The notes under the pieces were generated by a model. It saw only the letters and a program-made list of their open reading frames with translations. It did not search any database and was not told the DNA's origin. From assembly GCA_964540015.1 (NCBI GenBank), contig CAZIKW010000004.1, positions 629 to 38,157 on the forward strand: DNA of 37,529 nucleotides. The letters are read 5' to 3'. This stretch comes from an uncultured Methanosarcinales archaeon. GTDB taxonomy: Archaea; Nanobdellota; Nanobdellia; Woesearchaeales; UBA525. The position numbers and the translations under genes are program-made. Of the stretch, positions 11,627-31,199 are shown in pieces; within the stretch, counting starts at the first letter, position 1; each line of letters begins with the position of its first letter.

Positions 11627-11665
11627 CTCTGGATGTGTTGGGAGAGGGAAACCGCAACATATTAA

Positions 11666-11689
11666 TTACTCCTCCCCTAAAGGGAGTAA
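11666..11689 (+). promoter_or_regulatory. Inverted repeat TTACTCC-N10-GGAGTAA between a TATA-like ATATTAATTA and the ATG of the second TrmB-family gene
   Basis: Read directly: 11666-11672 is the reverse complement of 11683-11689. The repeat ends 2 nt before the ATG at 11692. Confidence 0.4.
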
Positions 11690-11691
11690 CG

Positions 11692-12462
11692 ATGAATGAA
11701 AAAGACCTCCAAAATACCGGCCTGGGTTTGAACGAAGGGAAGGCCTATCTGGCATTGTTACGCCTGGGGACCACTACGACGACCGCTATCCTCCGAGAAA
11801 CAGCCATGCCCACCTCAAAAGTATACGAGAGCCTCACGCGCCTCCAACGCAAGGGTCTCGCAGCCTACAGCACCATTCGAGGTGTGAAGCATTGGCGTGC
11901 CGAAAATCCAGTGCGCATTCTCGATCTGCTCGACCAGGAGAATAGACAACTAGCACTTCGCCGCACAGTAGTCGAACACCTCGTCACCCAGCTACAGAGC
12001 ATACAACCCCACACCTCCAACTCAGAACGATTCACCGTGTATGAAGGCATCGCAGGCATCAAGACCGCAAGAGAGCAAGCCCTTCTACGACTAAAGCGTG
12101 GAGAGGAGATGCTTATCATTCTGAGCACCATGCCAGCCATCACCCACATGGAAGGCTTTTGGAGCGATTTTCAACGTCGACGGGCACGCAAAGGCATCCG
12201 CGCACGCTATCTCGTCCATCCGGAGTTCTCAGCGATAACCAAGACACGCATCAAACTCCCACTCACCGCTGTTCGCACACTCCCAACCTCCGCGCTCAGT
12301 CCAACATGGACAGAAATATATCCAGATCTGGTCGGAATAGGGGTCCTTGGTCCGAATCCATCACTGCTCATCATCGCAGACAACGACGTGGTGGCTGGGC
12401 ATCAACAGTACTTCGAGCAACTCTGGGGTTCTGCGAAAGCGAAGCGACGCAAGCGCACATAG
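11692..12462 (+). CDS. TrmB-family winged-helix transcriptional regulator (paralog 2)
   Basis: The start at MNEKDLQNTGLGLNEGKAYLALLRLGTTT matches the N-terminal spacing of the first TrmB paralog. It has a basic C-terminal tail. Confidence 0.75.
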   Translation: MNEKDLQNTGLGLNEGKAYLALLRLGTTTTTAILRETAMPTSKVYESLTRLQRKGLAAYSTIRGVKHWRAENPVRILDLLDQENRQLALRRTVVEHLVTQLQSIQPHTSNSERFTVYEGIAGIKTAREQALLRLKRGEEMLIILSTMPAITHMEGFWSDFQRRRARKGIRARYLVHPEFSAITKTRIKLPLTAVRTLPTSALSPTWTEIYPDLVGIGVLGPNPSLLIIADNDVVAGHQQYFEQLWGSAKAKRRKRT

Positions 12463-15424: not shown

Positions 15425-16084
15425 ATGATCCGACTCGTCTGCCTCGATATGGACGGCGTGCTCACGAAAACACGCAATTTCTGGATAGCGCTGCACGAAG
15501 CGTACGGAACGCTTGAGGAAGGGAAGACGCTTACCGAGAAGCACCTCCACACCGATTACGAGACGCTGGTGTCAGAAGTCATCGGACGCTTATGGAAGGG
15601 GAAAGACGAAGGCACGTTCACGAAACTGATTTCAGATATCGAGCTCCAAGACGGCATCGTGGAGTTTTTCGCAGCCCTTGACGAGGTGCGCATGGAGAAC
15701 GGGGATCCGGTGCCGCGTGCCATCATCACGTCAGGGCCGTTCGAGCTCGCAGACCGCATCGCCAAACAGTTTAAGGTCGAGTATGTCTTCGCGAACCAAC
15801 TCGTATTTCGCGACGGGAAGATCACGGGCGAATTCCGCTGGCCTGTCGGCGCTGGAACGCACGAGAAAGAACGCATCATCGAAACGTTATGCGATGATTT
15901 CTCCTTGCTTCCGACGCAGGTGCTCTATATCGGCGATTCGATGTCAGATATTGATGCGTTCAAGGTCGTCGGCGTGAGCATCGCGTTTAACAGCGCGCCA
16001 GAAGAGCTCAAAGCGATTGCTACGCATGCAATAGAAACCTCTGATCTACGCGATGTGGTGCCAATACTCAGGACGCTACGGTAA
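15425..16084 (+). CDS. HAD-superfamily hydrolase, phosphoserine-phosphatase-like
   Basis: Motif I is VCLDMDGVLT. A C-terminal GDSMSD motif is also present. Confidence 0.8.
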   Translation: MIRLVCLDMDGVLTKTRNFWIALHEAYGTLEEGKTLTEKHLHTDYETLVSEVIGRLWKGKDEGTFTKLISDIELQDGIVEFFAALDEVRMENGDPVPRAIITSGPFELADRIAKQFKVEYVFANQLVFRDGKITGEFRWPVGAGTHEKERIIETLCDDFSLLPTQVLYIGDSMSDIDAFKVVGVSIAFNSAPEELKAIATHAIETSDLRDVVPILRTLR

Positions 16085-16115: not shown

Positions 16116-17171
16116 TTAGATGCATGCTCCGTTGAAGCACACCGATGTCGTGTTCGTCACGCAACTCGTGTTCGTGAGCGTTGGTGTCACGCCGCTGCAG
16201 AAACGCTCCGTGAGCGTCGTGTTGCTCACGCACGTGTCCAAGTACGTGAACGGCGTGCCGCTCGCCGAACCCGTCACGTTGCCGAAGACCGTGAAGACGA
16301 TACCGCCATCAGAGTCACTGCACGAGTTCGTGTAGCAGCCGCTGGGGTCGAAAACGGAGCAAGTCCTGCTACAACCAAGCGTTCCACCGCTGTATCCCTG
16401 CGAAGAGCAGGTCTCGCCTTCAAGATCGGATCCATCGCAGACTTCCGTTCCTTCCGTCACGTTATTGCCGCAGGTCTGGTTGGTGCACAACGCAGTCTCG
16501 TAGCCGCTGCAGTCATTCTTGCAGCTGAGCGTCCCTCCGCTGTAGCCAAACGAGCCGCACGTCAGGTTGTTGAGGCTCGTGCCATCACAAACCTCGCTAC
16601 CTTCAGTCACATTATTGCCGCACACCGCCAGAGGTACGTAGTCGACGACCGCGTACACCTGCGCGACACGACCGCCGCCGTTCGGGTTCAGGCCGTACAT
16701 GCCCGCTTCCAGCGCATCGACCGTAGTGACCGTCCACGCGCTACTCGTCGCAGGGTTCGTCGTGTAGAGATGGCTGACCGCCGTCCAGTTCGCGGTTCCG
16801 CACATCTGCGTACCCGTCTGGTAATCTATGCCGCCAGAGCGTGTCATCGCGCCGATGCATGCGTTCGACGCGCTATTGTGTTGCATCAAGTAGTAGTAGA
16901 TGCGCACGGAGTTGATGGATTCAGTTGACAAACCAGTGTTGTCAAACGTGAACGTCTCCTTCCCCGTGCCGGTCGCGAAGAGATAGTCCGACGTATTGAC
17001 TGGAGTCTCCTCAACACAACTCCAGTGATTTCCCGCGCCGGAACACCCTTGCTGCGACCATGCGGTCCGGGCGCCGCTCGCATCAGGATGTATAGTCAGC
17101 GTTGCTGCCAGCGCTGTTGGTATCGCAAGCGCCAACATGAATAAGAGAACTAGTGCGTTCATAAGTCGCAT
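16116..17171 (-). CDS. Secreted surface protein with tandem CGNNVTEG-x-EVCDG cysteine-rich repeats
   Basis: The start at MRLMNALVLLFMLALAIPTALA (signal peptide) has a GAGGTG SD upstream. Two repeats of about 50 aa resemble the CGNG..E.GE.CD cysteine-rich repeat class. Many NxS/T sequons are present. Confidence 0.65.
   Translation of the reverse strand: MRLMNALVLLFMLALAIPTALAATLTIHPDASGARTAWSQQGCSGAGNHWSCVEETPVNTSDYLFATGTGKETFTFDNTGLSTESINSVRIYYYLMQHNSASNACIGAMTRSGGIDYQTGTQMCGTANWTAVSHLYTTNPATSSAWTVTTVDALEAGMYGLNPNGGGRVAQVYAVVDYVPLAVCGNNVTEGSEVCDGTSLNNLTCGSFGYSGGTLSCKNDCSGYETALCTNQTCGNNVTEGTEVCDGSDLEGETCSSQGYSGGTLGCSRTCSVFDPSGCYTNSCSDSDGGIVFTVFGNVTGSASGTPFTYLDTCVSNTTLTERFCSGVTPTLTNTSCVTNTTSVCFNGACI
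16335..16622 (-). repeat. Two tandem ~150-nt coding repeats (Cys-rich module)
   Basis: Residues 202-247 and 252-297 of the ORF are near-duplicates (CGNNVTEGSEVCDGTSLNNLTCGSFGYSGGTLSC versus CGNNVTEGTEVCDGSDLEGETCSSQGYSGGTLGC). Confidence 0.7.
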
Positions 17172-17260
17172 TCTTACACCTCTTGGAGAACTACCATCCC
17201 CAGTACGACCACAGGGGAACGACATTTTAAAAAAGTATGGTGCCCGTGTCCAGTGCTCCG

Positions 17261-18280
17261 TTATCGCGCAGCAGTGGAAACTCGTTCATATTCTCGAGCA
17301 TATATCTGCGCCAATGCCGCATCCTGAATGACCAATAAGTTCTCATCATTACGCGTGTTCGCGTTCGCCGTCGGGTTGAAGCTGCCCGTCACGACCGTCT
17401 TCCCATCGATAATGAACACCTTGTGATGCATCGTGCCAGAGTTACCATCCTTGAAAACAGGAATACCAACCGCTTTCAAAGAATCATATTCGGACCATTG
17501 ATCAGACTGCCTGCGCTCAACGACACCTTCCACAACGACACCTCGATCATACGCGCGCACGAGCGCATCGCCCACCGCATCGGACGTGAACGAGAACGTC
17601 ATGAACCGAATAGAGGCATTCGCCCCATCCAACGCGGCTATCAGAACCGTCTCGCATCCTTCCGCAGGGGCGAAGCAGACATCGACAGGAATACCGGAGA
17701 GCTCTACGAGCGGCGCATCGACACGCGCCTTCTTTGCGCCGCCGCCGTGTCCGCGCGCATCAAGGATATCCCACTCGCGTGCGTATGCTGCCGCGAGCGT
17801 ATGCGAGCGGAACACCACCAAGTGCTCATCATTCTTTGTTTGCGCGTTCACGGTCGGGTTCATCGAACCCGTCATCACGATCTCGCCATCGAGCACACAG
17901 AACTTATGATGCATCAGGCCAGCGGAATCGACCGTCGAGAATCCATGACCCATCGATTCCTCGGCATTCTCTTCGAACACCAATACATCGGCGTCTTTCG
18001 CATCGAGCGCTGCGATGGTCCGCGGGAGATCGAGCTCATAGTACGCGCAGCGGATGTCCGTCGCATTCGCGAACAAGGACAACATCGTCGCTTCGCAATC
18101 TGCCGTTCGACAGAAGACCGCATCGACAGAACCCTGTTCCTTCACTACGCCATACGTCGGCGCATCGAGCAAAAAGACGCGGATCGCCGCGAACAGCGCT
18201 CCAAGCACGATGAGCATCAGGATGATGATAGAGATGATGACGATCGGTTTGGGGCCATCGCTCTCAAAGCGTTGTTTCAT
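17261..18280 (-). CDS. Phospholipase D superfamily protein (two HKD motifs), N-terminal membrane anchor
   Basis: HHKFCVLDGEIVMTGSMNPT and HHKVFIIDGKTVVTGSFNPT both fit HxKx4Dx6GSxN. The TM helix is IVIISIIILMLIVLGALFAAI. A TATA-like CTTTAAGT (18302-18309) lies 22 nt upstream of the start. Confidence 0.8.
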   Translation of the reverse strand: MKQRFESDGPKPIVIISIIILMLIVLGALFAAIRVFLLDAPTYGVVKEQGSVDAVFCRTADCEATMLSLFANATDIRCAYYELDLPRTIAALDAKDADVLVFEENAEESMGHGFSTVDSAGLMHHKFCVLDGEIVMTGSMNPTVNAQTKNDEHLVVFRSHTLAAAYAREWDILDARGHGGGAKKARVDAPLVELSGIPVDVCFAPAEGCETVLIAALDGANASIRFMTFSFTSDAVGDALVRAYDRGVVVEGVVERRQSDQWSEYDSLKAVGIPVFKDGNSGTMHHKVFIIDGKTVVTGSFNPTANANTRNDENLLVIQDAALAQIYAREYERVSTAAR

Positions 18281-18336
18281 CGCTATGACGAGAACGCTGG
18301 CGCTTTAAGTGCGTTGCCCAGAGGAAACCGAAACCA

Positions 18337-20067
18337 TCACTCACCGCCTTGCGCCAAACGCACGAGCGTCTGCAGGCTATTGTGTTGCGCGAGCGAGCAA
18401 TCGCCTTTCGCCGATTGCGCTTGCAATGAGCGGAACCACGTGCCATCATTTATCGTCGACATGCGATCGGAAAGCGCGCAGATGGTAGGCGCATCGCCAG
18501 CCTCATAGCGCCCTTCGCTACGCGAAAGCGCGATACGCGCGTAATCATAATCCTCAGGCAACAGCGTTGGCGACGGTGGGATCGGAGAGATCGTGCCGCG
18601 ATCGTACGTGGTGACGGGTGTCCGCTCGAACCTACCATCCGTGAACACGCGCTGGGCAACGCCGATCGGCACGAACACATTGGTGCCCTCGGGAATCCTA
18701 GCGCCGGTCGGGATATGCGGATTGCGAGCGCGGAAACCATCCGCATCGCCGATGAGCCGCTCGAAATCGAGACCGGTGATTGGACGATGACCCGAAGCGT
18801 AATGCACGACGAAGCGTTCCGCCTGGAACGTCGGGTACTTGTACACCTCTCGTTCACGGAATGCAGGCACCAAATCACTACAGGTTCGCGCATCGCCCGT
18901 GTACGGTCCACGCGGAGCGCATCTGCCGGTATCCGTACGCACCGCCTTCGTTCCTGCGGCTTCTCGCACCGTCGTGTAGAGCGCATCACGGTCGATAGCG
19001 TTACGCAATCCCATGAAGCGCGGGACGTAGCGCGCGCTCTCTTTTTTGAATGTCGTACGGTTCGTCGGCATCTGCCAGCCCTCGGTAACGATCCATGAGA
19101 ACGCATCGGCCGCTTCTGTGCCGGGCGTATTCTCGTCGGCGTCAGGCATCACCAGATATTCCAGCGCCGCAAGCTGCTGCGCCTGCCAATCATCAAGCGC
19201 AGTCACGCGAGAGGGGGCTTTCCAATCCGCATGCGCTATCTGTTTCGAACGCATCTGCGCGAGATTCCCAGGGCCCGTATGATACGCGCTCATGCCGGTG
19301 AGGAAGCCGCCCGTGTGATAGACGTACGAACGCAAAAGGCCAAATGCAGCTTCTGCCGCGAGAATCGGATGTAAGCTCTCGTTCACATTCGTCCTGTTGT
19401 TCCCTCGACCTTTGGGCAAGATGAGACCCGCATTGCGCGCATTATCGCGATTGAGTTGAAACGGCCCTTCACAAGCGGCGGAACTGACGACGGAAGGGGT
19501 GAACAGGGATTCCTGAATAGCGATCAACCACGTATCGCGATCAAGCCCGTAGCGTAACCCGATCGATTCGAGATACGGAATGAATGGCGATGCTCGATCG
19601 AGCGCTTTGGGGATCTGATCCGCGCTTCCGATACGCCACGAGAGATCGCGCACCGACCTGAGCGCTGGCGGCAAGAACTGCCGATACGCTTTCGTCGCGA
19701 CCGTATCCAAATACTGGAGACCTTTAGTTCGCGCGCGCTGCCACCGCGCATATTCCACATCACTCATCTCGATCGCACTCACCGGACGTAAACGATCGTC
19801 GGGGAAAATAACGACCTTCCCGCGCGGCACCGCAGTCCACAAGTATCGCTCCAAACGGACTTCATCCGCCGCTTTAAGCGTCTCCGTGATGGGTGTGAGA
19901 AAGAGCTCGTGCTTGAGCGTCAGATCGATACGGGATGTTCCGTTCAATCGCGCGTCAGAGGTTTTATCGGGCGCGGGAGGTCGTACGGGACTCGCGGCGT
20001 CAGACGGCCGCGCAGCAGCAAGCGAGAGAGCGCATAAGCCCGCGGCGATCATCCCACGCAACCGCAT
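18337..20067 (-). CDS. Secreted protein with an SLT/GH23 lytic transglycosylase domain
   Basis: The signal peptide is MRLRGMIAAGLCALSLAAARPSDA. IAIQESLFTPSVVSSAACEGPFQL matches the ES...S.AGA.GLMQL motif, and AYHTGPGN matches AYNAGPG. A TATA-like sequence at 20091-20098 lies 23 nt upstream of the start. Confidence 0.75.
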   Translation of the reverse strand: MRLRGMIAAGLCALSLAAARPSDAASPVRPPAPDKTSDARLNGTSRIDLTLKHELFLTPITETLKAADEVRLERYLWTAVPRGKVVIFPDDRLRPVSAIEMSDVEYARWQRARTKGLQYLDTVATKAYRQFLPPALRSVRDLSWRIGSADQIPKALDRASPFIPYLESIGLRYGLDRDTWLIAIQESLFTPSVVSSAACEGPFQLNRDNARNAGLILPKGRGNNRTNVNESLHPILAAEAAFGLLRSYVYHTGGFLTGMSAYHTGPGNLAQMRSKQIAHADWKAPSRVTALDDWQAQQLAALEYLVMPDADENTPGTEAADAFSWIVTEGWQMPTNRTTFKKESARYVPRFMGLRNAIDRDALYTTVREAAGTKAVRTDTGRCAPRGPYTGDARTCSDLVPAFREREVYKYPTFQAERFVVHYASGHRPITGLDFERLIGDADGFRARNPHIPTGARIPEGTNVFVPIGVAQRVFTDGRFERTPVTTYDRGTISPIPPSPTLLPEDYDYARIALSRSEGRYEAGDAPTICALSDRMSTINDGTWFRSLQAQSAKGDCSLAQHNSLQTLVRLAQGGE

Positions 20068-20256
20068 ATCCTACTGCCCCCCGTTCGCATACTTAAAGCG
20101 TTCCGCCCGGTATCTGTCGCATACACCGACGGATGACTACGTGCGGACAGATCATCTTCGTCAAAGAGGAGTGACGATTTTTTACATACCTGTAACCATT
20201 TGAAAATGGTGTCAGAATCAGAACACATAAATATCAGTTTTCGAACGCACACGTAT

Positions 20257-20353
20257 CGTGGTCGAAAAAACGGCCGCGATCTAACTCACCTCTTTTCCCG
20301 GGAGGGACCCGTCAGGCGCAAGTCGGGCGGGACCTTCCAGGGCCTCTTTTTCT
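20257..20353 (+). ncRNA. Candidate structured small RNA (unclassified)
   Basis: A TATA-like CATAAATAT at 20225-20233 lies 24 nt upstream. Hairpin CGUGGUCG-A6-CGGCCGCG spans 20257-20278. Helix 20297-20306 pairs with 20333-20342, enclosing a CCCG/CGGG stem. A CCUCUUUUUCUC tract follows. The G-U pairs form only on the plus strand. Confidence 0.25.
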
Positions 20354-20363
20354 CAAAGCAGCT

Positions 20364-22148
20364 TCAACGCTTCCGTCGAACAACCTTCACAGCCCGAACC
20401 GTCGGCCACAACAGCAATGCGAGACCAAGAGCGAATGCTGCGCCGTAACAGAAGAAAATGATAGGCGCAGCCGCATCGATAGGCAATCGCCACGACACAT
20501 CATTCTCGGGAAAGTACATGTCAAGCGTAGCTAGTTCAAGCGCTTCTTCAGCGAACGTGAGCGCACTGTACGGCGCATCATCGCGCAACCAATCCGCATA
20601 GCGCCAATAGCTGTATGCGAGGATCGGGAATGAACCGCCCGCCTGGCGCGAGGCGAGGACACGCTCACCTGCATCGATCTTCTCCGTGACGAGAGCATCG
20701 ACACGGCTCGGATCAACGGCGATAGCGCTCGCTATCAGATTCGCATGCGCCGTCGCTTTCGCCGCATGCAGAATGCACAGCACGGGTTCGCTGTCACTGC
20801 GGTACGCGAGCGAGAGCTCTTCTTCAGCACTCTCCACAGCCGCAGGAGCGTACAACCGCACATAACTCAAGCGCTCATCAGCCTCGGCGATCTTCGCGAG
20901 GCATGCACGACGGAGTTGGTCGTCATCGACACGTAAGGGCGCTCCCGGCATACCAAATAACGCACTCCAGCTTCCCGCGCTCCTGATGCGCTCGTCTGCG
21001 TACGCGATATCTGCGCTACTATTCTTCTCATCCACATCGACATCTTTCATCGTCTCGCGCGCCTCGCTGATACGCTCACGCACGATGGCGCTCACCTCGA
21101 GGTCGCCGACTGTGAGAATCGGCGTCTGTTCCGTCGTATTCTCGACTTCGATGATATGCGCACGCACCTCACGCGCGAGCGCGCGTCGCTCTTGCAAGGA
21201 CATATCTTTCACAATCAACGCATTCAATTCGATGTCTTGGCTAAAGCACAGCGATGCACGCGGATATCCCGCATCAAGGGGTGTCGCTTCGATGCGGCGG
21301 GTGAAATTATTGGGGTCGTCGTACATCAGATCCCGTCGCCCCACTTCTGCACGCAAGAACGCGTTACGGGCGCAGATCTCTGCGCTGATGTCACGCATGC
21401 GGTTCGCGTATTCGGGTGGTGCGACCGGTTCCGCAAGCGCAGGCGATTGCTCGCGATGCGTGAAGAGCGCGAGCGCCTCATCGAGCGTACCGACCGCGAT
21501 GACCGTGACCTCTTTACTCGATAACGCGGCGACAGGTCCACGCTCGAGCGGTCCGATACCTGGCTGCGGAACGCTCGCTAGCGGCGCAGTCCCATTGACG
21601 ACCGTCTCATTCTCCGGTCCGCTCAAAAGCGGCACGAGCACCGTCGTGATACCAGCGCGTCGTGCGCCATCGATCTTCGCACGCACGCCAGAGATCGGGC
21701 CGATGACACCGCCGCTATTGATTGTGCCGGTCATCGCGATGTTCTCATCGAGCGTTCGGCGGTCGAGGACGGCTGCGGTGAGTACAGCGATCGCTCCGCC
21801 CGCGCTCGGTCCACCCACTACTGCGGTGTTCGCGCGGATCGTATAGCGGAAATCGTACTTTGAGCAATCGATATCCAAGTGATCGCATGCGACCTGATTG
21901 GCGTACCGCGTGCTCGCTTGCGTGTCCAGACGCGTGAGCGGGAAGCTATCGATGAAGATCGCGCCTGTCCCCGGCACGACATCAAGACGCACGGTCGCCG
22001 TACCACCGCGTTCCATCCCGTCACCAGTCTCAGACACCGTGAGTAGCGTGAGCTCTCCTGAGCGCGTGCTCTCCGTCATGAACTGAACGCCGACAGCGAT
22101 AAACAGAAGCACAATACCTGCGATGAGAAGTATGCGTCGGCGATCCAT
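20364..22148 (-). CDS. Membrane-anchored archaeal S16 (Lon-type) serine protease with a long C-terminal helical extension and C-terminal TM
   Basis: VGGPSAGGAIAVLTAAVL (catalytic Ser) and GVRAKIDGARRAGITTVLVP (Lys) match the Lon proteolytic domain. TM helices are present at the N- and C-termini. The ATG directly abuts the bud32 stop. Confidence 0.8.
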   Translation of the reverse strand: MDRRRILLIAGIVLLFIAVGVQFMTESTRSGELTLLTVSETGDGMERGGTATVRLDVVPGTGAIFIDSFPLTRLDTQASTRYANQVACDHLDIDCSKYDFRYTIRANTAVVGGPSAGGAIAVLTAAVLDRRTLDENIAMTGTINSGGVIGPISGVRAKIDGARRAGITTVLVPLLSGPENETVVNGTAPLASVPQPGIGPLERGPVAALSSKEVTVIAVGTLDEALALFTHREQSPALAEPVAPPEYANRMRDISAEICARNAFLRAEVGRRDLMYDDPNNFTRRIEATPLDAGYPRASLCFSQDIELNALIVKDMSLQERRALAREVRAHIIEVENTTEQTPILTVGDLEVSAIVRERISEARETMKDVDVDEKNSSADIAYADERIRSAGSWSALFGMPGAPLRVDDDQLRRACLAKIAEADERLSYVRLYAPAAVESAEEELSLAYRSDSEPVLCILHAAKATAHANLIASAIAVDPSRVDALVTEKIDAGERVLASRQAGGSFPILAYSYWRYADWLRDDAPYSALTFAEEALELATLDMYFPENDVSWRLPIDAAAPIIFFCYGAAFALGLALLLWPTVRAVKVVRRKR

Positions 22149-22745
22149 TCAGGTCACCTTGTTGCGGCCGCGGCGCTCGACTGCGCGCAGACGTTCGAGT
22201 ACGGCCGTTGCATCTTTGTTCTTTTGGCGGTAACCGGCGGTGAATGAGCGGAACGCTTGCGTCGCGACCTTGTGGTGCTTACTCGCGAGCGCTTGCTTGA
22301 GCACATGGATATCGACCGCGCGGTCCTCCAAGCGGACGCTATGAAACGAGAGGCCGAAATCGATGACGGTGATGGCACCGCTCTTGACGTCGTGCATGAT
22401 GTTGCTTGTCGTCAGATCACCGTGGATGATACCGGCACCGTGGAGTTTCGCGATCATCTTGCCGACTTCCGCAAGAAGCTTCGGATCTTTGTCAAGTGTT
22501 TCTTTGAGGGGCACACCAGAAGCGAGCGCGAGTTCGAGCGTGGAATCATCGATCGTCTTGACATCGGGGACCGCAACACCAGCCCGCTTCGCTTTCTCGA
22601 GATTGCGAGCTTCCGCTCGCGTGCGTTGCGTACGCAGGAGCTTGTCGAGCTCAGGATGACGATACGTTTTCGCGGGGCGGGATTTACGAACGCCAGTCTT
22701 GGTCCGCTCCACGATCGCTTCCGCTCCTTGCGCGAGAATAGACAT
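22149..22745 (-). CDS. bud32: KEOPS complex kinase/ATPase Bud32
   Basis: It begins LAQGAEAIVER, contains GIIHGDLTTSNIM, and has the typical length of 198 aa. A TATA-like GCTTTAAAAGG lies about 25 nt upstream. Confidence 0.85.
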   Translation of the reverse strand: MSILAQGAEAIVERTKTGVRKSRPAKTYRHPELDKLLRTQRTRAEARNLEKAKRAGVAVPDVKTIDDSTLELALASGVPLKETLDKDPKLLAEVGKMIAKLHGAGIIHGDLTTSNIMHDVKSGAITVIDFGLSFHSVRLEDRAVDIHVLKQALASKHHKVATQAFRSFTAGYRQKNKDATAVLERLRAVERRGRNKVT

Positions 22746-27688: not shown

Positions 27689-30055
27689 GTGGTGACAAGA
27701 TTATCGACTGATGAACGTTCCTGGGCGCAGGAGCACTGGACAGCTGCGAACTATCTTGCAGCATCGATGATCTATCTCAAGGATAACGAGCTTCTTGAGA
27801 AACCGCTCAAAGGAGAGCATATCAAAGATGCACTCCTGGGCCACTGGGGCACGTGCCCGGGTCTGAACATCCTGCAGACACATCTCTCCCTTCTCGCAAA
27901 GAAGCGGTCGCAATCCACGCTGCTTATCACCGGGCCAGGCCACGGATTCGCATCCTTCCTCGCGAATTCGTTCATCGACGGATCGCTTGAACCCTACTAT
28001 CCTGAACTCACAGCTGACAACGCAGGCACGCGCAATCTCATCAAAGCATTCTGCTGGCCTGGCGGTTTCCCAAGCCATCTCAATCCTGGCGTTCCCGGTT
28101 GTATCCACGAAGGCGGCGAACTCGGCTACGCGCTCGGCGTCGCATTCGGCGCAGCATTCGACAACCCAGATCTCATGGTCGCATGCATCGTCGGTGACGG
28201 TGAAGCGGAAACGGGACCGACCGCTGCAGCGTGGCACAGCACCAAATGGCTCGACCCGAAAAAAGACGGTGCAGTGCTCCCCATCATCCATCTCAATCGC
28301 TACAAGATCAGCAATCCCACGATCTACTCAACGATGAGCAGACCGGAACTCACCGCACTCTTCACGGGGTACGGCTACGCGCCGAAGTTCGTCGGACCTG
28401 ATCACGACAAGCTCCACGCGGCGATCTTCTGGGCGCATGACCGCATCCGCGCGATCCAGCGTGCAGCACGCAGCGGCAAACCGAACGCGCGACCCCGCTG
28501 GCCAGTCATCATCTTCGAGAGCCCGAAAGGAATGACGGGTATCTCGAAACTCGGCAAGGATACGATCACCGGCACCTGGCGCAGCCATCAAGTCCCGGCG
28601 AAAGACGCGAAAGCGAATCCCGAGAGCCTCGCAGCGCTCGAGCATTGGCTGCGTTCGTACAAGCCCGAACATATTTTCACTGCTGGTTGGGTCACTCGCC
28701 TCCGACGACATCTGCCTGAAGGGCCGCTGCGCATCGCAAGCAACCCGCACGCTATCGGCGGCAACCTGCGTACAGCGCTCGAATTACCGGCACCGGAAGA
28801 GTTCCAAGTCGCCATCCATCATCGCGGACACGACCGCGCCGGCAGCACGCCGGTGTTCGGGCAATTCCTCACGTGGACCGTCCGCATGAACAAGAATAAT
28901 TTCCGCATCTACAGCCCGGATGAACTCGCAAGCAACAAGCTCGATGCAGTGCTCGCAGCCACAAGTCGCGCGTACACGTGGCCCCATGAGAAGACCGACA
29001 ACACCCTGGCACCTGGCGGCCAAGTGATGGAGATCCTCAGCGAGCACACGCTCCAAGCATGGATGCAAGGCTATCTCCTCACCGGAAGGCACGGATTGTT
29101 CCCGAGTTACGAAGCGTTCCTCCCAATCGTCGACAGCATGGTGAGCCAATACCTCAAATTCATCGAGATGAGCAGAGCGTACCCATGGCGCACGCCGGTG
29201 TCGAGCATGAACTATCTCTTGACCTCCGTCTGCTGGCGGCAAGACCACAATGGATTCTCGCATCAGAACCCAGGGTTCATCAACACCCTCCTGAACAAAG
29301 CGAAAGAGGAACAGCTCGTGCGCATCTACTTGCCCGCGGACGCGAACATGACACTCACGGTCGCGGATCACTGCTTGCGCAGCGTGAATCGCGTGAACGT
29401 GATCGTCGCGGACAAGCAACCCAACCGCCAATGGCTTTCCTACCAAGAAGCGCGCGACCAAGCGCGCACCGGTGCGGGCATCTGGCCGTTCGCGAGCGTC
29501 GACGACCCTGATGTGATCTTGTGCGGCATCGGCGACTACCAAGTGCAAGAATGCCTCGCGGCGATCATGCTCTTACGCCACATCGCACCAGAAGTCAAGG
29601 TGCGCTTCGTGAACGTGAGTGAGCTGAATGTCTTAGGTCCAGCACCGTTCTATCCCAACGGCATGGATGAAGGCGCGTTCCAGCAGCTCTTCCCCGTCGA
29701 CCGCACGACACTTATCAGCTTCCACGGCTACCCAGGCGCGGTCAAGCAACTCCTGTTCGATCGCCCCGCCAATAGCCGCTTCCACGTGTACGGCTATATC
29801 GAGAAAGGGACGACGACGACACCGTTCGATATGCTCGTGCGTAACAATGTCTCACGTTACGACCTCGCTCGTCGATGCATCGAACATGCCGCGCGCCGCA
29901 ACCATGAACTGGCGCCGCACGCGCACCTGCTCATCGCAAGGATCGAGAAGGATCTCCTTGAGCACCAGGCGTACATCCTCGAGCACGGACGCGATCCACC
30001 CGAGATCGCGGAATGGACCTGGCACGACATCGCGCACGAGAAAACCACGCGGTGA
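27689..30055 (+). CDS. xfp: Xylulose-5-phosphate/fructose-6-phosphate phosphoketolase
   Basis: Motifs GHWGTCPGLN, EGGELGY and GDGEAETGP (TPP binding) are present. Length is 788 aa. It uses a GTG start preceded by an in-frame TGA. Confidence 0.93.
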   Translation: MVTRLSTDERSWAQEHWTAANYLAASMIYLKDNELLEKPLKGEHIKDALLGHWGTCPGLNILQTHLSLLAKKRSQSTLLITGPGHGFASFLANSFIDGSLEPYYPELTADNAGTRNLIKAFCWPGGFPSHLNPGVPGCIHEGGELGYALGVAFGAAFDNPDLMVACIVGDGEAETGPTAAAWHSTKWLDPKKDGAVLPIIHLNRYKISNPTIYSTMSRPELTALFTGYGYAPKFVGPDHDKLHAAIFWAHDRIRAIQRAARSGKPNARPRWPVIIFESPKGMTGISKLGKDTITGTWRSHQVPAKDAKANPESLAALEHWLRSYKPEHIFTAGWVTRLRRHLPEGPLRIASNPHAIGGNLRTALELPAPEEFQVAIHHRGHDRAGSTPVFGQFLTWTVRMNKNNFRIYSPDELASNKLDAVLAATSRAYTWPHEKTDNTLAPGGQVMEILSEHTLQAWMQGYLLTGRHGLFPSYEAFLPIVDSMVSQYLKFIEMSRAYPWRTPVSSMNYLLTSVCWRQDHNGFSHQNPGFINTLLNKAKEEQLVRIYLPADANMTLTVADHCLRSVNRVNVIVADKQPNRQWLSYQEARDQARTGAGIWPFASVDDPDVILCGIGDYQVQECLAAIMLLRHIAPEVKVRFVNVSELNVLGPAPFYPNGMDEGAFQQLFPVDRTTLISFHGYPGAVKQLLFDRPANSRFHVYGYIEKGTTTTPFDMLVRNNVSRYDLARRCIEHAARRNHELAPHAHLLIARIEKDLLEHQAYILEHGRDPPEIAEWTWHDIAHEKTTR

Positions 30056-30059
30056 ATCG

Positions 30060-31199
30060 ATGGATCTTTTGCTCATCGACGCGGGCAGCTCCAGCGTCAA
30101 GTTCCGCCTCTTTGAGAAGGATCGTATCTTGCTTGACGGCCAAGTAGACCGTGTCGGGCCGCAAGCGCGCATGCGCGTGCACGGCGAGGAATATCCGCTC
30201 GATGCTCGCGATCCACCGGCCGCGCTCGCGCGCATCATGGAACTCACCGCAGCAGCGCTGCAAGGACGAGCCCCCGGCGCGGTAGCGCACCGCATCGTGC
30301 ATGGCGGCGACCGTGACCGTGCCGCAATCATCGACACGAAGGCACTCGCTGACCTTTCAGGATATAGCGAGCTCGCGCCATTACACCAAGGCGTGCAACT
30401 CGCGCTCGTGCGCGATACGATGCGGGCCTACCCGGATGCGCTACAGATTGGTTGCTTCGATACTGCGTTTCACGCACATATGCCGGCTGTCGCGCGCGAA
30501 TATGCCATACCGCGCGCGCTCTCGAAGGAATTCCGCATCAAGCGCTATGGCTACCACGGGCTCGCGCACGAGGCGATGCTCATCGAAGCGGCCGCGCTCA
30601 TGGGCCGGCGGCCTTATGACTTGCGCATCATCACGCTGCAATTAGGAAATGGCGTGAGCGCGTGCGCGATAGCTGACCGCCATTCGCTGGACACCACGAT
30701 GGGCTTCACGCCGCTTGAGGGCTTCCCGATGGGAACGCGCTCCGGCTCCATCGATCCCGCGATCATCCCCTACCTGTGCGAGCGGCTCCACGCGACGCCG
30801 CAGGAGGTCTTGCGTATCCTCGAGCACGATAGCGGCATGCTCGGCGTCGGCGGTTCGCATGATGTGCGCGACCTCCTCGCGCTCGAGCACAAGGACCAGA
30901 ACGCGAAGCTCGCGCTCGACCTTCTCGCGTACCAATTGCGAAAGGCGATCGGCGCAGCGTGGGCGGTGCTCGGGCGCGTGGACGCGGTCGTGATGGCGGG
31001 CGGTATTTCGCAAAGTCCTGTGATGCGACGCAAGATCCTGCAGGGACTAGAAGGGTTCGGCATCGCGCTTGATACGCATGCGGGGACCCATGCCGCACCA
31101 CTGCAGATCTCCACAGGCGACGTACCGGTGTTCGTGGTGGACGGGGACGAGCTGGAAGTCATGCGCCGGGAAGCCCATCGTCTGCTTGCGACCAGGTAG
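30060..31199 (+). CDS. ackA: Acetate kinase
   Basis: Motifs IDAGSSSVKF, HRIVHGG, FDTAFH, RYGYHGL, QLGNGVS and DTTMGFTPLEGFPMGTRSGSIDP are present. It begins 4 nt after the xfp stop. Confidence 0.9.
   Translation: MDLLLIDAGSSSVKFRLFEKDRILLDGQVDRVGPQARMRVHGEEYPLDARDPPAALARIMELTAAALQGRAPGAVAHRIVHGGDRDRAAIIDTKALADLSGYSELAPLHQGVQLALVRDTMRAYPDALQIGCFDTAFHAHMPAVAREYAIPRALSKEFRIKRYGYHGLAHEAMLIEAAALMGRRPYDLRIITLQLGNGVSACAIADRHSLDTTMGFTPLEGFPMGTRSGSIDPAIIPYLCERLHATPQEVLRILEHDSGMLGVGGSHDVRDLLALEHKDQNAKLALDLLAYQLRKAIGAAWAVLGRVDAVVMAGGISQSPVMRRKILQGLEGFGIALDTHAGTHAAPLQISTGDVPVFVVDGDELEVMRREAHRLLATR

Follow-up and report, generated by a model that had tools for sequence, protein, structure and literature searches.

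The 37,529-nucleotide stretch of contig CAZIKW010000004.1 analysed here (the window) contains a cluster of five co-oriented minus-strand genes that encode the kinase/ATPase Bud32 and four proteins predicted to be surface-anchored or secreted: a Lon-type protease, a lytic transglycosylase-domain (SLT) protein, a phospholipase D (PLD)-superfamily enzyme and a cysteine-rich repeat protein. GC content is ~57% across the whole window, and the composition does not shift at the cluster. An earlier account of this DNA (the sequence-only reading) regarded the last four genes, taken as consecutive, as a candidate locus for attacking bacterial cell envelopes. The five open reading frames (ORFs) are all present at the coordinates below in the ORF listing, the domains are as that account described them according to Pfam and NCBIfam, and the catalytic motifs are intact. 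The features of the locus are as follows.

22149 to 22745, minus strand: bud32, KEOPS kinase/ATPase (TIGR03724, 197.1 bits against a cutoff of 125; TATA-like box TTTTAAA at 22774-22768).
20364 to 22148, minus strand: ATP-independent Lon-type S16 serine protease (Lon_C, 43.8 bits against a cutoff of 21.1).
~20250 to 20355, plus strand: candidate small RNA gene (covariance model match at 20280-20342).
20158 to 20210, minus strand: palindromes and a relic micro-ORF (DNA conserved among relatives).
18337 to 20067, minus strand: SLT/GH23 lytic-transglycosylase-domain protein of 576 amino acids (aa) (PF01464, 36.2 bits against a cutoff of 21.3, residues 181-283).
17261 to 18280, minus strand: PLD-superfamily enzyme with two HKD motifs (two PLDc_2 matches in Pfam, E 4.6e-39).
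16116 to 17225, probable start 17171, minus strand: Cys-rich repeat protein (no family match; 23 Cys, two Cys repeats of ~45 aa).

The protease contains a Lon proteolytic domain in which the motif GPS115AG, K158 and six cysteines are invariant among 26 homologs. An AlphaFold2 (AF2) model built from 26 homologs (predicted local distance difference test score, pLDDT, 86.8) shows only a transmembrane (TM) helix, the proteolytic (P) domain, an alpha domain and a second TM helix. Residues ~30-230 superpose on Lon proteolytic domains, including the Escherichia coli Lon P-domain, with target-normalised TM-scores of 0.74-0.78, and residues ~245-545 form an all-alpha domain with no PDB counterpart among the fold-search matches listed. 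The S16 domain with its Ser-Lys dyad is common to LonA, LonB and the window protein, whereas the AAA+ ATPase module of LonA and LonB was not found in the latter by Pfam, NCBIfam or fold search. The protein is closer in design to the extracytoplasmic S16 proteases of the SepM/YlbL type, with which it shares the Lon domain and dyad, the absence of AAA+, the membrane anchor and, as predicted here, a catalytic domain outside the cell. However, the NCBIfam SepM match is weak (7.8e-6; 25.1 bits against a cutoff of 200), no PDZ domain matches in Pfam, and a second, C-terminal TM helix and the ~300-aa all-alpha domain set the protein apart. It belongs to a family of its own, found mainly in DPANN-named archaea, one member of which is labelled 'predicted S18 family serine protease' by the Joint Genome Institute (JGI).

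The SLT protein retains the motifs Q185-E186-S187, G201-P-F-Q204 (GPFQL) and A261-Y-H-T-G265 (AYHTGPGN), and E186, Q204 and G265 are invariant across 14 family members with 22-49% identity to it. Its SLT domain covers residues ~181-283, and the N- and C-terminal flanks have no family assignment. A profile search against PDB sequences gave no match for this protein, and the AF2 model, built from five sequences, has a pLDDT of 44.6, too low for a fold search. A LysM domain was suspected in the C-terminus from the pattern NPHIP...IPEG...VFVP and dropped, there being no Pfam match at E 0.1. In the PLD enzyme, both HxKx4Dx6GSxN motifs are legible in the translation, as HHKFCVLDGEIVMTGSMN and HHKVFIIDGKTVVTGSFN.

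Topology was assessed from Kyte-Doolittle hydrophobicity and the positive-inside rule, which is a rule of thumb rather than the output of a predictor. By this measure all four products carry export signals or anchors, as the sequence-only reading had held. The Cys-rich protein has a cleavable-looking signal ending in ALA, followed by AT; the PLD enzyme has a single TM helix that forms an N-in signal anchor; the SLT protein has a weak Sec-type N-terminus; and the protease has a TM helix at each end with Lys/Arg residues on the cytoplasmic sides. Each half of the PLD enzyme begins with paired cysteines, as it does in the more distant locus L068. By these rules the bulk of all four proteins, catalytic domains included, is predicted to lie outside the cell and not in the cytoplasm. 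The invariant cysteines of the protease and the paired cysteines of the PLD enzyme also speak for an outward topology.

Judged at the sequence level, the cluster is not one operon: the SLT, PLD and Cys-rich genes have promoter-like boxes of their own and would form separate transcription units. TATA-like boxes lie 28-30 nt upstream of the ATG of the SLT gene (TTTAAGTA at 20097-20090), the PLD gene (CTTAAAG at 18309-18303) and bud32 (22774-22768). The proposal that the SLT, PLD and Cys-rich genes each have a TATA box at leaderless distance is thus borne out for the first two only. In the Cys-rich gene an A/T box (17234-17226) adjoins the first ATG and lies 55-63 nt upstream of the start at 17171; because GGTG stands 5 nt upstream of that start, the gene is probably leadered rather than leaderless. 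The bud32 stop codon directly adjoins the ATG of the protease gene, which agrees with the bud32-protease operon proposed earlier and is the sole operon-like junction of the cluster. The 296-nt spacer between the protease and SLT genes holds the candidate RNA gene on the plus strand. Therefore the two genes are split by a convergent transcription unit, and the four genes are not strictly consecutive.

A metagenome scan with an alignment of the Lon protein identified 80 loci (33-79% Lon identity, 25-63% GC), whose six-frame ORFs were searched with the window proteins and which were collapsed into 66 clusters at >=90% Lon identity. In 28 of the 45 informative non-redundant clusters Lon_C is followed within 2.5 kb by a co-oriented PLD gene, and the pair is widespread in relatives without any SLT gene. 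Bud32 abuts Lon_C upstream in 18 of 51 informative non-redundant clusters. One predicted protein (P0162, 855 aa, on a Logan contig of 5276 nt) joins a Bud32-type kinase to Lon_C, either by gene fusion or by loss of the stop codon at the junction, and supports the link between the two genes. The four-gene neighbourhood of adhesin-like, PLD, SLT and S16 genes is not kept as a unit in relatives. Its adjacency is not due to chance insofar as part of it recurs, although it never recurs as four genes. The gap between the Lon and PLD genes was also considered as a variable cargo slot for assorted secreted enzymes; this was rejected, the ORFs in the gap being mostly one small protein resembling the TtuA_LIM_N zinc ribbon.

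Some or all of this order could be inherited. The whole ~20 kb around the cluster is collinear with the closest genome (L001), in which identities range from 91% for CDC48, 81% for GatD and 71% for PLD to 64% for Lon and 47% for SLT; hence, conservation of order within the close clade cannot alone prove functional linkage. The genes may accordingly be housekeeping genes of the envelope with no relation to each other, such as a lipid-head-group enzyme and a protease for membrane quality control or maturation, that remain neighbours because gene order decays slowly in genomes this small, the SLT gene having landed among them by chance. The housekeeping genes in the collinear region (GatD, CDC48, NUDIX, SET, UPF0113), the separate promoter of each gene, the loss of the Lon_C-PLD pair from 17 of the 45 informative loci and the distant PLD homologs (46-47% identity) that have neither a Lon nor an SLT neighbour (L007, L008) are in line with this view. 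It accounts less well for a pair that endures from 50% down to 33% Lon identity and across GC contents of 25-63%, for rearranged PLD genes that retain the RNA gene (L050, L068, L082) and for a PLD slot that, where refilled, holds exported proteins of nuclease type rather than random genes. We regard descent without functional coupling as a real, if doubtful, possibility.

A HAD-family hydrolase gene (window 15425-16084, plus strand) is convergent with the PLD gene and overlaps it in L001, L002 and L004. Across the wider clade it stands beside PLD, the P0012 and P0137 contigs being two cases, and it is absent from more distant Lon_C loci; another distant PLD homolog keeps the convergent HAD gene alone.

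More than 1,280 homologs of the PLD enzyme and more than 250 of the Lon protein were found. Because those with a name are almost all from Woesearchaeota, Nanoarchaeota or DPANN archaea, the source organism is apparently of DPANN type (Woesearchaeota/Nanoarchaeota-like).

Sequence comparison places the PLD enzyme in the Nuc/NucT/Zucchini branch and suggests that it is most likely a nuclease rather than a phospholipase. In NCBIfam it matches NucT (6e-16) and DrmC best and cardiolipin synthase only at 2e-5; in PDB the top matches are to the Nuc endonuclease (1byr, 4e-19), Zucchini/MitoPLD and NucT. NucT is its closest branch, not its equivalog (58.5 bits against a cutoff of 297); the cardiolipin synthase model scores 23.6 bits against a cutoff of 290. 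The enzyme has a single TM helix and short modules of ~150 aa, and lacks the N-terminal two-TM and long domains of cardiolipin synthase. Nuc (Salmonella pKM101, PDB 1byr) and NucT (Helicobacter pylori, PDB 6ehi), the best sequence match to both halves, are likewise exported, have a short HKD module and act on nucleic acid. They are single-HKD proteins that dimerise, whereas the window enzyme, whose activity is predicted, has two fused modules behind an N-terminal membrane anchor.

The strongest argument comes from loci in which other nuclease folds replace PLD downstream of Lon_C. In L012 (12443-13381) the position is taken by an N-terminally anchored Exo_endo_phos (EEP) protein (E 4.7e-10), and in L011 (12669-13235) by a 188-aa protein with an N-terminal anchor matching that of PLD and an HNH motif, EVDHIVSLELGGSNDIKNLYPE. 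These look like non-orthologous replacements of one exported nuclease by another, which argues that the slot encodes an exported nuclease. NucT functions in purine salvage and transformation in H. pylori (PMC5714352), and reliance on scavenged nucleotides is widely inferred for DPANN archaea (PMC8204110).

Alternatively, the PLD protein might be a lipid enzyme, of cardiolipin/phosphatidyl-transferase type or a phospholipase, that remodels lipids derived from a host, since DPANN archaea generally make none. Its two HKD motifs and membrane anchor would suit such a role, cardiolipin synthase models give weak matches (2e-5, 8e-4), JGI annotates relatives as 'phosphatidylserine/cardiolipin synthase-like', and the convergent HAD phosphatase is kept as a neighbour in the wider clade. 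The similarity to Nuc, NucT, DrmC and Zucchini is nevertheless far stronger, each half is a short Nuc-type module of ~150 aa, and EEP and HNH-type proteins take the slot in other lineages. A lipid enzyme is therefore rather unlikely, and the membrane-attacking phospholipase of the attack proposal gives way to an enzyme that groups with nucleases.

The spacer between the protease and SLT genes is more conserved as DNA than the SLT protein is. A core GG-A(4-7)-GAGGTGA with a preceding hairpin occurs in 73 of the 80 Lon loci; almost without exception it shares the strand of Lon and is less than 700 nt from the Lon stop codon. In L050, L068 and L082, where Lon and PLD have come apart or been inverted, the element remains beside PLD. 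No ORF following the Shine-Dalgarno (SD)-like sequence GAGGUGA is conserved across loci. The element was considered as a 3' untranslated region on the Lon strand, a riboswitch or an SD-led micro-ORF; these were rejected because there is no conserved ORF and the other strand folds far better. The opposite strand is the more stable in 72 of 75 unique versions (mean -22.8 versus -15.8 kcal/mol) and has 147 G.U pairs versus 8. The better folding and the G.U excess suggest that the RNA is encoded opposite to Lon and PLD, on the plus strand of the window, where its gene is convergent with the protease gene and divergent from the SLT gene.

In the window copy, a 5' hairpin is followed by the single-stranded CUAACUCACCUCUUUUCC, which resembles an anti-Shine-Dalgarno sequence, then by a G.U-rich hairpin whose loop is GCAA, and last by a CUCUUUUUCUC tail. 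The copy is preceded at ~20220-20235 by AGAACAC-ATAAATAT, which resembles a transcription factor B recognition element (BRE) and TATA box. The plus strand of 20250-20355 folds as two hairpins around CUAACUCACCUCUUUUCC (minimum free energy -45.9 kcal/mol, z -3.7). The same architecture is found in all lineages: a promoter-like box, a 5' hairpin that differs between lineages, the single-stranded (A)UCUAUCACCUCUUUUUCC, a further hairpin, commonly with a UUCG or GNRA loop, and GGGUUU(U)A. A BRE/TATA-like box, CGAAAnnTTTAAATA or TTTATATA, is present in 57 of 62 unique upstream sequences at a median of 75 nt before the motif. The 3' module (UCACCUCUUUUUCC and hairpin) is tandemly duplicated downstream of Lon_C in five loci (L026, L049, L067, L072, L073).

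A first MAFFT alignment (A4), in which the variable stem was misaligned, gave RNAalifold no structure; an end-anchored alignment of the correct strand yielded 12 pairs, 10 of them with compensatory double changes. A covariance model matched 72 of 82 sources once each (E 6e-15 to 4e-3), always opposite to Lon, and in the window it matched the plus strand at 20280-20342 (27.4 bits, E 2e-4). Pairing holds in 94.3% of cells, compared with 73.7% after shuffling and no more than 62% after sliding of the 3' partner, in an alignment (A7) that was itself fitted to the model. Altogether, a candidate RNA with the single-stranded anti-Shine-Dalgarno-like UCACCUCUUUU(U)CC accompanies 59 of the 66 non-redundant Lon_C locus clusters, from 25 to 63% GC. 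Rfam 15 gave no match at gathering score in the whole window and, at E<=10 in 19950-20500, only chance-level matches to eukaryotic miRNAs and snoRNAs. Signal recognition particle RNA, RNase P RNA, 5S RNA, C/D and H/ACA RNAs, preQ1 and known ribozymes were rejected for want of Rfam support and of fitting motifs.

Small regulatory RNAs with C/U-rich anti-Shine-Dalgarno seeds, complementary to ribosome-binding sites, are a general class. The candidate resembles them in its short length, its separate promoter, its unpaired CACCUC(U)n and the hairpin and U-tract at its end, all as predicted here. It differs in having no Rfam family and in being confined, as sampled, to the Lon_C/PLD locus of Woesearchaeota-like archaea. 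Because UCACCUC is an anti-Shine-Dalgarno sequence, pairing with ribosome-binding sites is a reasonable guess, and translational control is the function it suggests. One candidate target, the Lon gene, has an SD-like sequence at its start in no more than 18 of 80 loci, and in many loci it appears to be leaderless. To our knowledge, no regulatory RNA has been described for this Woesearchaeota-like DPANN group, and the small RNA candidate is the most novel item of the locus.

The SLT gene has a far narrower range than the Lon_C-PLD pair. It is missing from 78 of the 80 scanned Lon_C loci, the only positives in that profile search (A1) being L009 and L010 of the window's own clade. A word-indexed search found four homologs, at 95, 86, 47 and 47% identity, on contigs that all show the order bud32-Lon_C-SLT-PLD followed by the convergent HAD hydrolase. 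The co-oriented bud32-Lon_C-SLT-PLD arrangement is in fact present in every relative with this SLT protein (L001, L002, L005, L089, the P0137 contig and, in part, L004, L009 and L091), so the neighbourhood put forward by the sequence-only reading is conserved to this extent and without its Cys-rich member. Variants include bud32, Lon, SLT-like, a 150-aa ORF and PLD in L089; bud32, Lon and SLT-like in L091; and, on a third contig, Lon, two inserted genes, SLT, a 151-aa ORF, PLD and HAD. The protein evolves fast, with 47% identity where CDC48 has 91%.

A full profile search at E<1e-10 recovered 39 proteins of the SLT family, of which P0247 and P0246 share contigs with Lon homologs of ~45-48% identity. 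The distant members include a protein from a Rhodothermales bacterium and another on a 5.8-Mb contig. The archaeal protein thus appears to be a clade-specific member of a family with bacterial members. Its narrow clade and its distant bacterial relative make it look like a bacterial acquisition, which is consistent with horizontal transfer.

The insertion point of the SLT gene is apparently still legible. In other lineages the RNA gene is followed by a small ORF of 150-210 aa with a weak match to the TtuA_LIM_N zinc ribbon, which starts MVT... at an ATG within the palindrome ACCATT-N4-AATGGT; the same ATG opens a 174-177-aa ORF (MVTNQKC...) in L012 and L035. In the SLT clade this start is retained as a micro-ORF of 5-12 codons. 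In the window it has five codons (MVTGM*, ATG at 20201) and is overlapped by the palindromes ACCATTTTCAAATGGT (20210-20195) and TCGTCAC-N6-TTGACGA (20177-20158); in L001, L002, L011, L089 and L091 it has 9-12 codons (for example, MVTDIVTAF*). In L089 the body of this gene is located after the SLT gene, and the window has lost it. Because the start of the small gene precedes the SLT gene and, in L089, its body follows it, the SLT gene was apparently inserted just behind the old promoter and start of this TtuA_LIM_N-like gene. The palindrome blocks are invariant among loci whose SLT proteins share only 47% identity, and since this DNA is better conserved than the protein, it may still serve as an operator or leader for the SLT or RNA gene.

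Use of SLT/GH23 enzymes against bacterial walls has already been proposed for DPANN archaea and Woesearchaeota (PMC8204110, PMC9723730, PMC10936187). The exported murein-like lytic transglycosylases of Woesearchaeota and Pacearchaeota (fam00969; Castelle et al. 2021, PMC8204110) and the exported SLT/GH23 proteins of 'vampiristic' Woesearchaeota, proposed to act against bacterial walls (Vigneron et al. 2022, PMC9723730), resemble the window protein, and there, as apparently here, the bearer is a DPANN-type archaeon without murein of its own. The proteins described in these two papers are very large, up to 3000 aa; the window protein has 576 aa and belongs to a separate family of ~520-660 aa with a conserved C-terminal NPHIP...IPEG...VFLP and at least one distant bacterial member. 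A fixed position between Lon-type protease and PLD genes is not described in the two papers. Exported lytic enzymes in DPANN archaea are therefore a known theme of which this cluster is a variant, and the idea of an attack locus is itself neither new nor established here. The literature search found no description of the Lon_C-PLD pairing, the compact archaeal SLT family, the RNA gene or this gene order, in agreement with the sequence-only reading, which was aware of no description of the combination as a unit.

The Cys-rich protein has a signal peptide, a beta-rich region, two CGNNVTEG..C repeats and a C-terminal CxDSDGG module, and its gene sits between PLD and the convergent HAD gene. The gene is absent from L001, L002 and L004, three contigs that extend past PLD and include one (L004) with an SLT protein 86% identical to that of the window. 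It therefore appears to be a strain-specific insertion. The protein has no Pfam or NCBIfam match, DUF4215 (the Myxococcus-type Cys-rich repeat) giving none even at E 10. Across 91 loci it has one relative, a 598-aa protein of L068 (13377-15173, minus strand; phmmer E 8e-75, through the repeats), encoded ~1.2 kb from the PLD gene of that locus and on the other strand. That relative is secreted and has nine DUF4215-type repeats (28.3 bits against a cutoff of 27), a Somatomedin-B-like module and a C-terminal CxDSDGG; through it, the window protein is indirectly related to DUF4215. A surface or adhesin role is plausible. A TrmB-family regulator gene (275 aa, window 11635-12462, plus strand), located between a SET-domain gene and GatD, has no counterpart there in L001 or L004. 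As with the Cys-rich gene, this points to an insertion specific to the strain in a region that is collinear in other respects.

With modest confidence, we favour an explanation in which the locus is a syntenic block of separately transcribed genes for surface or secreted hydrolases that would serve extracellular digestion for scavenging. Its conserved core would be a doubly anchored ATP-independent S16 protease followed by an anchored two-HKD PLD protein, most likely an extracellular nuclease, with bud32 upstream, and in operon with the protease, in many lineages, and with an antisense-oriented small RNA gene and a small zinc-ribbon ORF between protease and PLD. In the window clade, a secreted SLT/GH23 protein of ~580 aa would have been inserted behind the old promoter of the small ORF, and in this strain alone a Cys-rich DUF4215-like surface protein would have been added after PLD. 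We infer that the exported enzymes digest external polymers that a reduced archaeon cannot make itself: the PLD protein would act on nucleic acid, the S16 enzyme on protein or in the processing of surface proteins, and the SLT protein on bacterial murein. The polymers may come from living partner cells or from necromass.

Several points weigh against this explanation. The Lon_C-PLD pair is missing from 17 of the 45 loci and from L007 and L008, and where it persists it could reflect inherited gene order with no functional coupling. The HNH protein of L011 scores 18.1 bits, under the Pfam cutoff of 21.4. The substrates of the enzymes are predicted from family resemblance; PLD-family enzymes of this size can act on lipids too, and the JGI names of relatives of the PLD protein point that way. 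The closest genome (L006/L001, CAYNGK010000003.1, GCA_964396935.1; CDC48 91%), the single match in the genome collection, is titled 'uncultured Methanosarcinales archaeon', which is at odds with a DPANN assignment. Finally, scavenging and attack are not separable from sequence.

A dedicated host- or prey-attack locus would work as one unit: the adhesin docks, the SLT protein opens murein, the PLD enzyme hits the membrane, and proteins of the envelope are degraded by the S16 protease. In favour of this view, export is predicted for all four products, the bud32-Lon-SLT-PLD order is shared by every SLT-bearing relative (among them L089 and the P0137 contig, with ~48% Lon identity and different flanking genes), the fast evolution of the SLT protein is as expected of an interface protein, and predatory SLT-bearing Woesearchaeota have been proposed in print (PMC9723730). 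However, the adhesin-like gene is absent from close relatives and part of no conserved unit, the Lon-PLD pair long predates the SLT gene and is present in many lineages without it, and the PLD enzyme is nuclease-like; these points weaken the attack reading. In addition, the genes have separate promoters, an opposite-strand RNA gene divides the cluster, and the 37.5-kb window contains no pore-forming toxin, secretion system or contact apparatus. The wide occurrence of the Lon-PLD pair without SLT speaks against an SLT-centred attack kit, and we consider a dedicated attack locus quite improbable.

A bolder variant of the scavenging explanation, to which we give little credence, would make the S16-RNA-nuclease block a 'surface feeding' module conserved in Woesearchaeota-like DPANN archaea and governed by an anti-Shine-Dalgarno RNA not described before; a bacterial SLT protein in the window's clade and a Cys-rich adhesin in this strain would have upgraded it to the opening of, and feeding on, living bacteria. 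If true, a cross-domain predatory or parasitic lifestyle would be legible from one locus. The locus bears on how nucleotides, amino acids and lipids reach DPANN archaea and on whether some of these prey on bacteria rather than archaea, matters for which there are almost no experimentally tractable handles. Given its wide conservation, the exported protease/nuclease-type pair could serve as a lineage marker of surface digestion; the small RNA candidate is a further handle, and the compact 576-aa SLT protein is more tractable than the giant SLT proteins reported so far.

Elsewhere in the window, the plus strand at 27689-31199 encodes a phosphoketolase (XFP_N, XFP and XFP_C, E down to 1e-129) followed by an acetate kinase. 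Together the two enzymes represent an acetyl-phosphate pathway of bacterial type, an unusual pairing for an archaeon.

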